DNA from: Thermoplasmata archaeon
Lineage (GTDB): Archaea > Thermoplasmatota > Thermoplasmata > GCA-020350865
Direction: 5' to 3'
DNA length: 64,000 bases
NCBI GenBank assembly: GCA_020348445.1
Contig: CP070751.1
Coordinates: 2,744,750 to 2,808,749 of the forward strand
The notes under the pieces were generated by a model. It had not been told where the DNA came from. It made no database searches and worked only from the letters and a program-made list of their open reading frames with translations. Made by a program: the position numbers and the translations under genes. Positions 56,004 through 63,387 of the stretch are shown here, piece after piece (position 1 is the stretch's first letter; each line of letters starts with the position of its first letter).

Positions 56004-56157
56004 CGGGCCTGGCGGGATTCGAACCCGTGACCGATCGGTGTCCCTGTGGCCAATGCCCCAACAACGAAGTTAGGCTGGAATTCACGCCAGGTTTCTTTGT
56101 CAGAACAAAGAAACGCACATAAGAGCCGATCGCTCTACCTAGCTGAGCTACAGGCCC
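56004..56157 (-). tRNA. trnK: tRNA-Lys(CTT) with 80-nt intron at 37/38; CCA not encoded
   Basis: GGGCCTG-TA-GCTC AGCTAGGTA GAGC-G-ATCGG CT CTT A [intron] A CCGAT-CGGTC-ACGGG TTCGAAT CCCGC-CAGGCCC-G; 74-nt mature length. Confidence 0.95.
56040..56119 (-). other. tRNA intron with bulge-helix-bulge motif
   Basis: C32-U33-C34-U35 pairs with intron AGGG; 3-nt bulges UAU and ACA; outer helix GUG/CAC. Confidence 0.9.
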
Positions 56158-61637: not shown

Positions 61638-61802
61638 TTAATCCTTTATTTTCTCGAACCATTTCTTTTTAGCCCCGCATTCAGGACATCTGAAGCTCTC
61701 ACTTATGTTTTCAAATGGTGTCCCTGGATCGATACCTTGATCTGGGAGTCCAGCCTCTGGGTCATATATCCATCCGCAAATTGTACATTTGTATTTAGTC
61801 AT
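61638..61802 (-). CDS. rub: Rubredoxin (not in ORF track)
   Basis: MTKYKCTICGWIYDPEAGLPDQGIDPGTPFENISESFRCPECGAKKKWFEKIKD; TGAGGA SD; directly downstream of tiaS. Confidence 0.95.
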   Translation of the reverse strand: MTKYKCTICGWIYDPEAGLPDQGIDPGTPFENISESFRCPECGAKKKWFEKIKD

Positions 61803-61810
61803 CTAAATCC

Positions 61811-63106
61811 TCAAGAATATCTCTTAAGAGGCTTTGAAAGATGTCTTCTTGCACAGACAGGCACCTCATAGAATCCTTTTTTCATATCTCTTTTTACTTT
61901 CTCTAATTTTACATCTTCCTCTTTTACTTTAGCTCCGCATTTTATGCATCTGTAACCTGCGCCCCTTCCTATGGACTTCATCCTTTTTTTACATTTTTTG
62001 CAAACCGGATTTCCCACTTTTTCATATACATCAATCAGTTTTTTAATTTGTATCTTTTCTATATTTATGGTCAATGGATATTCCCGCACTCCTCCATATA
62101 CTGTGATCAAATCCCCAGGCTCCAGGGAGCGAATTAAAGTGCGGAACTCCTTTGTTGGTTCGTAGGCAGCACAGTCCATGGTTCCCCTATTTTTGATTTT
62201 GAATATGACATGTCCGCCTTCAATTGTCCTGGGTTTAGAACCTACCATACCAGAGGTTACAACTGAGCTGTACTTGGAGATTTTACCAAGTGTCTTCTTA
62301 TGCAAATGCTCGTCTGTTCCCTGGTTTGTCTCAAATAAGATCCATCTGTCCTTTTTTTCTGATTTTATACTGTCCTTAGCCTTTAAAAGATCTCTTGGTT
62401 TATCTCCTCTTATACCGAATAAAACCGGGCATGGACTATTGGGTGTAATTGCCACAACCTTGTTGTGCATATCGTAGTTGTTGAAGGTCGAAGGGAACTT
62501 GCGGTCCATCTCAATTACTGAATGAGTATCAACCCTCCTTTTTGTTCCCCATCTATTTTTTTCCCTGTAAACTATGACTTCATAGGTTCTGTCCCTGGGA
62601 TGCCATGAGATTGCAGATGTGGCACCAATAAGGCCCCTTTGGTTCTTGTACCCTTTGTAGCTTGCGTTGCCCATTTTCAATATATTTTTCACATCCTTTA
62701 GATTCACAACCTCCCGAACTGCCTTCCAGTATAGACCTGGGGTTGGCTTTTTTTCCATGACCACAAATGCGGGATTCGTGTTTTTATCTGAAAACTGTGC
62801 ATGTTCTTCCATAATCCTTTCGATTCTTTTTTTTACATTTGGAATTGCAACACTTCTTCCCCTGAGATAACCAAAATAATCCTTTTCCTCTATGTTTCCA
62901 ATCAAGAACCTTTTTCCATTACCCTTTCCAAGCCTTACTGCAATGGCCCCGTTTCCCCTAGTCTTCCAAGGAATATTTGGATTCAGCCTCACCAGTCTAG
63001 GATAGCCTATGACATCATATTCTGCAAATTCTGTTATAAGTTCTGATGCCAAATACGTGGTGCACATTGCAGAAACTGAATCAGTGTCGTCTATTCCGAT
63101 ATATAT
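61811..63106 (-). CDS. tiaS: tRNA(Ile2) agmatinylcytidine synthetase, probable AUA start
   Basis: GIDDTDS..MCTTY, PRLVRLNPNIPWKTRGNGA, RGLIGA, PCPVLFGIRG, TNQGTD, OB fold, zinc ribbon, RRHLSKP. The conserved N-terminus lies upstream of the track ATG. Confidence 0.93.
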   Translation of the reverse strand: MYIGIDDTDSVSAMCTTYLASELITEFAEYDVIGYPRLVRLNPNIPWKTRGNGAIAVRLGKGNGKRFLIGNIEEKDYFGYLRGRSVAIPNVKKRIERIMEEHAQFSDKNTNPAFVVMEKKPTPGLYWKAVREVVNLKDVKNILKMGNASYKGYKNQRGLIGATSAISWHPRDRTYEVIVYREKNRWGTKRRVDTHSVIEMDRKFPSTFNNYDMHNKVVAITPNSPCPVLFGIRGDKPRDLLKAKDSIKSEKKDRWILFETNQGTDEHLHKKTLGKISKYSSVVTSGMVGSKPRTIEGGHVIFKIKNRGTMDCAAYEPTKEFRTLIRSLEPGDLITVYGGVREYPLTINIEKIQIKKLIDVYEKVGNPVCKKCKKRMKSIGRGAGYRCIKCGAKVKEEDVKLEKVKRDMKKGFYEVPVCARRHLSKPLKRYS

Positions 63107-63186
63107 GGAAAAACCTCCTCCTCTACATTTTAATTAGGTGGAACTTTTCCCCAAATCGCCTTCTTTGCCCAGTTGAAATTGATACT

Positions 63187-63387
63187 CTACTTCCATGACT
63201 CAAGGAAATTCTCAAGCGATCTGTCGTACGTTCTCTCTCCCTCAGGAGGAAACAGACATCCTGGAAGACCGCCTCTATTTTTATGATATTTTATGCACTC
63301 GCAGCACTTTCCTTTTCTTTCACAGGGCTCGTATGTGCAGCCGCAGTCAGCCTTGTTTGCCTCTATATTGCATTCCAAATTCCACAC
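63187..63387 (-). CDS. Small Cys-rich protein (DUF6485-like)
   Basis: C.CTYEPCERKGKCCECIKYH...LPGCLFP...E.TYDRS.E.F. Confidence 0.8.
   Translation of the reverse strand: MWNLECNIEANKADCGCTYEPCERKGKCCECIKYHKNRGGLPGCLFPPEGERTYDRSLENFLESWK

Follow-up and report, generated by a model that had tools for sequence, protein, structure and literature searches.

Genes that begin with AUA, AUC, or AUU (AUH; ATH in DNA) are well known in bacteria. Initiation at each of these codons by initiator Met-tRNA, directed by a Shine-Dalgarno (SD) sequence, is established there, and in Escherichia coli the genes that start with AUU are infC and pcnB only (PMC5499595). Moreover, genes with a weak start codon tend to carry SDs that are stronger and better conserved (Belinky, Rogozin and Koonin 2017, PMC5622118). 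Here, we analyze the start of tiaS, a gene on the minus strand of a 64,000-nucleotide stretch of DNA from an uncultured Thermoplasmata archaeon (contig CP070751.1, positions 2,744,750 to 2,808,749; hereafter the window, whose own numbering is used below). We find that tiaS appears to start at AUA and would add an archaeal gene to the bacterial cases.

TiaS agmatinylates C34 of tRNA-Ile2 and thereby allows AUA to be decoded. Decoding of AUC and AUU does not depend on TiaS, and a start codon is recognized by the initiator tRNA instead of tRNA-Ile2. The proofreader of start codons in archaea is aIF1, and we know of no role for TiaS in either the selection or the proofreading of a start codon. We also found no paper on a noncanonical start codon of tiaS. 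We put the probability at about 0.8 that the tiaS of the window is an intact gene translated from the AUA at 63106 to 63104 behind a strong SD, and that this start would be an inherited trait of Thermoplasmata rather than a local accident.

RESULTS

The open tiaS frame runs from 63133 to 61814 on the minus strand, where an in-frame TAA (63134 to 63136) shuts it on the 5' side and a stop codon (61813 to 61811) ends it. Gene callers start the gene at the first canonical in-frame ATG (63065 to 63067), which gives an open reading frame (ORF) of 418 amino acids. We redraw the coding sequence from an ATA at 63104 to 63106, such that it spans 61811 to 63106 with 431 codons plus the stop, and the callers' ATG becomes Met14. 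The first-pass annotation of the window had claimed that no ATG, GTG, TTG, or CTG lies between the TAA and the ATG at 63067, and indeed, none occurs among the 22 codons that separate them, with all of its coordinates holding on the minus strand. The TAA is followed by TTA, AAA, TGT, AGA, GGA, GGA, GGT, TTT, and TCC and then by the ATA (63106 to 63104), after which come TAT, ATC, GGA, ATA, GAC, GAC, ACT, GAT, TCA, GTT, TCT, and GCA before the ATG. By our estimate, the chance that 22 codons lack a canonical start is about 1 in 3. Such a gap is common by chance, and therefore, the weight of the argument rests on the catalytic residues, on coding-type evolution, and on the same layout in relatives.

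The ATA lies 7 nt past the SD GAGGAGGAGG (63114 to 63123), which pairs with the 16S 3' end GGATCACCTCCT found in the same genome at a duplex energy of -10.1 kcal/mol. In the long ORFs of the genome, about 390 of which are SD led, the first canonical start follows GGAGG at 7 nt in 115 cases, at 8 nt in 65, and at 6 nt in 49. Thus, the gap between the SD and the ATA matches the most frequent spacing in the genome. Met14 has no SD before it and sits 46 nt from GAGGAGGAGG. A strong SD at the modal spacing, together with the ATG or GTG that other relatives have at the same site, makes initiation at the ATA most likely, as had been proposed. A second ATA is codon 5 (63094 to 63092), also as described, and the gene holds 14 internal AUA codons in all. 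The ORF list contains no ORF of at least 40 amino acids that ends at the TAA at 63136 to 63134, and readthrough from an upstream gene is therefore excluded. The 13 codons ahead of Met14 encode I-Y-I-G-I-D-D-T-D-S-V-S-A, in which several Asp, Thr, and Ser residues are invariant parts of the kinase domain, and the conserved N-terminal motif G-I-D-D-T-D-S occupies codons 4 to 10 (63077 to 63097).

By its domains and alignments, the minus-strand gene is tiaS, and its product is tRNA-Ile2 2-agmatinylcytidine synthetase. The Pfam domain TiaS_TCKD (PF22641) covers residues 2 to 149 at 156 bits, while TiaS_FLD (PF08489; residues 157 to 267, 141 bits) and Zn_ribbon_TiaS (PF23783; residues 366 to 407, 45.7 bits) are both matched above cut-off. 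An OB fold, at 19.9 bits, is under its cut-off yet stands at the expected place in the domain order. The TiaS of Archaeoglobus fulgidus (PDB 4rvz and 3amt) was matched at an E value of about 5e-98 in an alignment that reaches residue 429, and it is the same enzyme with the same domain order and the same GIDDTDS and MCTTY motifs. Residue 1 of the window TiaS pairs with residue 3 of the A. fulgidus protein, residues 1 to 57 pair with residues 3 to 61, and the GIDDTDS motif aligns to residues 6 to 12; the solved protein has two additional N-terminal residues before the aligned block. The NCBIfam equivalog NF040849 scored 378.8 bits (E value, 3e-113) against a naming cut-off of 600 bits, which is a pipeline threshold and not a biochemical feature. 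Among the tRNAs that ARAGORN identified in the bin, an incomplete set, there was no candidate for an archaeal tRNA-Ile2 with a CAU anticodon.

The essential TiaS motif is encoded ahead of Met14, as the first-pass annotation had said. Residues D6, D7, T8, D9, S10, C15, T16, and T17 are invariant in an alignment of 16 sequences (alignment A1), and the stretch evolves by coding-type substitutions. A metagenome scan with the TiaS protein alone gave 3 loci, and close relatives were instead obtained by way of contigs encoding homologues. Assemblies made independently (JGI, NCBI, and Logan) supplied these relatives, including the forms with ATA. Across eight genus-level sequences, codons 2 to 13 have 2, 2, and 12 variable sites at codon positions 1, 2, and 3, respectively, and 9 of the 12 residues are invariant; in the 24 nt upstream, 20 sites are variable. 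We conclude from this substitution pattern that the stretch is translated and that coding begins at or beside the ATH codon. At the aligned start, the eight sequences, at 69 to 81% protein identity, have ATA in six cases, ATC in one, ATT in one, and ATG in none. The layout of a GGAGG-type SD, a gap of 5 to 8 nt, and then ATH is common to four species of the genus and to further close relatives, and all genus relatives keep the SD while the bases around it change.

How tiaS starts in Thermoplasmata at large was surveyed at 108 loci (30 in genomes of relatives and 80 in GTDB species genomes), all labeled Thermoplasmata, Thermoplasmatota, or synonyms. At 25 of the 108 loci, the frame held no canonical start from the preceding stop codon to the GxDDTDS motif, and at 2, the sole canonical start lay 21 to 30 codons upstream. 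Three further loci probably start at ATC, as their GTG or TTG falls within the SD, adjoins it, or codes for the Val of Y-V-G in the sister of an ATC locus. Every such locus has an ATH three codons ahead of the Gly, the position most often taken by ATG (33) or GTG (14) at the remaining loci. Over the whole set, the codon at the aligned start position was ATC at 24 loci, ATT at 6, and ATA at 4. ATA was limited to the genus of the window, which also has ATC and ATT, and outside that genus, the codon was ATC (about 20 loci) or ATT. The first-pass annotation had asked whether AUA recurs at the Met position, and it does so within the genus and not beyond it, where ATC is found most often. Its refuting condition, that all close relatives have ATG there, was contradicted by the relatives. 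On a FastTree phylogeny built from TiaS proteins with the first three residues omitted, the ATH state required 10 parsimony changes, at least 6 of them forced by well-supported branches, and ATG forms were nested in ATH clades. The start state therefore flipped repeatedly.

Among the top 120 TiaS entries in the database, 33 (about 27%) begin with MCTTY or MDDTDS, as would be produced by gene callers blind to ATH starts. The entry for the window genome (P0001) is the 418-amino-acid form that begins with MCTTY, a form that the first-pass annotation had suggested looking for, and it is without D6, D7, and D9.

Loci with ATH starts also differ in their SDs. The mean SD duplex energy was -8.8 kcal/mol for 27 ATH loci, the weakest being -5.6 kcal/mol, and -3.6 kcal/mol for canonical loci even when the best-placed canonical codon was picked. 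An SD of -7 kcal/mol or stronger was present at 26 ATH loci versus 14 canonical loci, and most relatives whose homologous codon is AUG or GUG lack a strong SD. The difference is specific to the gene because aIF1 uses strong SDs in the lineages with canonical tiaS starts. ATH and canonical loci did not differ in GC content nor, by a rough ORF-based test, in whether the upstream neighbor was codirectional or divergent. The share of AUA among internal Ile codons was 0.27 at ATH loci versus 0.37 at canonical loci (uncorrected P = 0.003), a difference from which we draw nothing. In an AT-rich clade (GC at third positions [GC3], 0.19 to 0.45), all 12 members start tiaS at ATC, and in 8 of the 12, ATC makes up 4 to 17% of the internal Ile codons. 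Retention of ATC against codon bias points to selection that constrains the third base itself.

A sister clade begins tiaS with ATG and is without an SD (loci L034, L046, L048, L051, L052, L056, L069, L070, L072, and L077). Its members share a conserved CATATACTAC...TATATAAAAATTTA-ATG in the upstream 35 nt. The arrangement suggests a promoter for a leaderless or near-leaderless tiaS mRNA, unlike the neighboring SD-led ATC forms on the tree.

Four genes served as controls in the same 40-genome panel, each anchored by motifs 2 to 4 codons from the start. No canonical start was found in 2 of 30 loci for kae1, both in one genus, in 0 of 29 for aIF1 (all ATG behind GGAGG), in 0 of 29 for ndk, and in 0 of 17 for a Rossmann-fold enzyme, for which motif anchoring worked in 17 of 30 loci. 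Pooled, the controls had 2 noncanonical starts in 105 loci. In the same panel, tiaS had no canonical start in 9 to 10 of 29 loci (Fisher P = 1e-5 by genome). The enrichment of tiaS for ATH starts is real, yet few independent lineages stand behind the figure.

Two of the controls have start codons of interest in their own right. The kae1 gene, which functions in t6A synthesis, has ATC-ATC or ATA-ATC before GIEGTAHT at loci L126 and L131 (genomes G027 and G016) with no strong SD visible, and ATG or GTG stands at that site in the 28 remaining relatives. The ndk gene has TTG as its start codon at 10 of 29 loci (L188, L190, L204, L206 to L210, L213, and L215), in most cases preceded by a GGAGG-type SD, and is a second case of gene-specific start-codon preference.

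Within the window genome, SD-led ORFs have as their first start ATG in 310 cases, TTG in 70, and GTG in 24 (404 canonical). Where no canonical start is near the SD, ATA was found 13 times versus 6.5 expected from codon background, ATT 10 times versus 6.1 expected, and ATC 5 times. At most, ATH is used by a few percent of the SD-led genes in the genome. Some of the ATA candidates look genuine, as signal peptides start exactly at an SD-led ATA (2701244, 2143766, and 3986322 of the whole genome [G000], all on the minus strand). Other likely ATA starts, also outside the window, belong to three paralogous large membrane or secreted proteins (G000:3182635 and 4493037, plus strand; 2042584, minus strand) that have in common GGAGGGGGCGT-ATA-CAT. 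A paralogous pair furnishes candidates for an ATT start (G000 1804494, plus strand, and 1689874, minus strand).

The neighbors of tiaS lie on the same strand. Upstream, a small Cys-rich gene of the DUF6485 family (63187 to 63387; Pfam PF20095, 29.4 bits) is in a different frame and stands 80 nt 5' of the ATA. DUF6485 was seen next to tiaS in three genus members only, and given that limit, we rejected its synteny as an explanation of the start. Downstream, a rubredoxin gene (61638 to 61802; Pfam Rubredoxin, E value 6e-21) stands 8 nt 3' of the tiaS stop codon, and the two genes are probably cotranscribed. The tiaS-rubredoxin pair recurs with a gap of 4 to 11 nt in several relatives (L176 to L181), including the closed chromosome of a metagenome-assembled genome (CP070726.1). 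Finally, the ATG-TAG that the first-pass annotation saw abutting the SD exists at 63123 to 63128 in another frame, but it has no SD of its own and is conserved neither in the genus relatives nor at any other ATH locus (0 in each). It is probably due to chance, and we rejected a regulatory mini-ORF there.

Other observations concern tRNA genes. Rfam matched a 154-nt tRNA gene at 56004 to 56157 of the minus strand (48 bits), presumably with a long intron, and ARAGORN reported no tRNA in the window. Elsewhere in the bin, there is an initiator tRNA of bacterial type (C1xA72, tRNA-fMet-like; G000:2412747-2412823), which indicates that the bin is contaminated with bacterial DNA. With introns allowed, ARAGORN places a dense cluster of atypical tRNA-like genes at G000:4641467-4643474, among them an Ile(TAT) gene with an intron and a CAT tRNA that looks odd. 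Instead of housekeeping tRNAs, these could be repeats or a tRNA array of a mobile element.

DISCUSSION

The strong SD 7 nt upstream would place the ribosome on the AUA of tiaS, and the initiator Met-tRNA would accept the near-cognate codon despite its third-base mismatch to AUG, such that residue 1 would be Met. Pairing a weak codon with a strong SD may keep TiaS output low or make it sensitive to start-codon proofreading, and the enzyme would have only one tRNA species to act on. In roughly a quarter of the sampled relatives, the homologous start would likewise be AUC (in most lineages), AUU, or AUA, always with a strong SD. That the third base is A in the genus of the window appears incidental and unrelated to the role of TiaS in AUA decoding.

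Several points weigh against initiation at AUA as an inherited, tiaS-specific trait. When the link between SD strength and ATH was examined in 6 phylogenetically independent contrasts, about 4 went in the same direction and 0 to 1 in the opposite direction, which is not significant (median P = 0.25). The enrichment of tiaS over the controls becomes modest after collapse to families (Fisher P = 0.03). Moreover, kae1 also has ATH starts in one genus, a handful of other genes in the window genome resemble ATA or ATT starts, and some part of the ATH effect would seem to be a habit of the lineage. The actual start might also, though less probably, be the ATC at 63100 to 63098, 13 nt from the SD, or the ATA at 63094 to 63092. 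Finally, the start codons given in a recent review of initiation in archaea are AUG, GUG, and UUG alone (PMC7531240). In Haloferax volcanii, ribosome profiling detected near-cognate candidate sites that were set aside (PMC7261190).

Perhaps the AUA start is real and has no regulatory meaning. Little TiaS may be needed, loss of AUG could be near neutral behind a strong SD, and the codon would then drift among AUA, AUC, and AUU. Drift would account for a third base that varies within the genus, for changes that go both ways on the tree, and for the apparent ATH starts of kae1 and a few other genes, and the association with SDs fits the plain compensation known for GUG and UUG starts (PMC5622118). 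The ATC kept in 12 of 12 members of the AT-rich clade, where it is a rare Ile codon, argues otherwise, as does the absence of G from the third base of the start in the eight genus sequences even though 12 of 12 neighboring third positions vary. Moreover, the frequency of ATH is far above that in the four control genes, and selection generally prefers AUG, with AUG-to-AUU switches at 1 in 61,358 (PMC5622118). We therefore consider drift a tentative explanation that is possible but not favored. At the other extreme, the strong SD and AUH might form a true control device, an archaeal counterpart of infC, in which TiaS output would be set by how strictly third-base mismatches are rejected by the initiation machinery, meaning aIF1, aIF2, and the supply of Met-tRNAi. 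Such a device would tie production of the AUA decoder to the state of the pool of tRNAs with a CAU anticodon, or it would shield tRNA-Met and the initiator tRNA from misagmatinylation by surplus TiaS. We think so elaborate a role unlikely. Less likely again, AUA itself was chosen because TiaS makes AUA readable, which would create an AUA-specific feedback on TiaS synthesis. The first-pass annotation had raised such tuning by analogy with infC, and while the general likeness to bacterial AUU, AUC, and AUA starts is apt, the AUA-specific feedback is unsupported, as AUC predominates. ATA is the commonest start in the genus (6 of 8 sequences), and the internal AUA codons make TiaS synthesis dependent on its own product, but that dependence acts in elongation. 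AUC and AUU, neither of which needs TiaS, serve as starts outside and inside the genus, and a start codon in the P site is decoded by the initiator tRNA instead of the agmatidine-bearing tRNA-Ile2. Nor was a conserved RNA structure or tRNA-like mimic found near the start, where the minimum free energy was no better than that of shuffled sequences (z = -0.15) and Rfam gave no match.

Initiation might also occur at the AUA but not be directed by the SD. An AT-rich, TATA-like element, TAATTAAAA (63136 to 63128), lies about 26 nt 5' of the ATA and could give rise to a leaderless mRNA, or ribosomes could reinitiate after the ATG-TAG 16 nt 5'. Neither element occurs in any relative, whereas the SD is present in relatives at a fixed spacing, and we regard both routes as very improbable. 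Hardly any more credible is translation from the ATG at 63067, with the upstream codons as leader, or decay of the gene to a pseudogene. Met14 is the first canonical codon and is preferred by gene callers, but starting there would cost the kinase domain its invariant D6, D7, and D9 and would leave unexplained the coding-type substitutions in the 13 upstream codons, and the SD is absent at that site. A pseudogene is at odds with a remaining ORF that is intact and with the recovery of all domains. Least probable of all is an error of sequencing or assembly that hides a true ATG. The window genome is a metagenome bin, presented as a single 5.16-Mb contig of 354 pieces joined by 100-N spacers and with some contamination. 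The gene, however, sits well within a 104.7-kb piece, and close relatives that were assembled independently show ATA, ATC, or ATT there and in no case ATG. Thus, initiation at AUA behind the strong SD remains the reading that we prefer.

Why an enzyme that separates the decoding of AUA (Ile) from that of AUG (Met) should itself have a weak start is a question raised by these data, and dosage sensitivity is one candidate answer. There is also a practical consequence. Gene callers drop catalytic Asp residues of TiaS, an essential decoding enzyme, and models, alignments, and calls of presence or absence are systematically wrong in part of Thermoplasmata. Moreover, the AUH start of tiaS, conserved over long evolutionary distances and with a third base that shows hints of being selected, offers a natural test case for near-cognate initiation in archaea and for proofreading by aIF1.

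The closest known system by layout is bacterial infC, which encodes IF3. Both infC and tiaS have a conserved AUH at the orthologous start in many species, are related to translation, and stand behind an SD (PMC5499595). Unlike TiaS, however, IF3 itself proofreads start codons and thereby closes an autoregulatory loop. Moreover, the ATH trait of tiaS occurs in only about a quarter of lineages, and aIF1 has, unlike infC, a plain ATG start here and in 28 relatives. By function, the best analogy for a start that is tuned low is E. coli pcnB, which encodes poly(A) polymerase I (PAP I) and is, like tiaS, the gene of an enzyme with a rare AUH start. The AUU of pcnB keeps PAP I low, overproduction of which is harmful. 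Unlike tiaS, pcnB is bacterial and a single well-studied gene, the start codon of which has been proven by experiment to limit expression. Finally, ATH tiaS loci all have strong SDs and so resemble the compensation described for weak starts, although that study dealt with GUG and UUG (PMC5622118). Against the 1 in 61,358 found there for AUG-to-AUU switches, the presence of ATH in about 28% of lineages makes tiaS an outlier.

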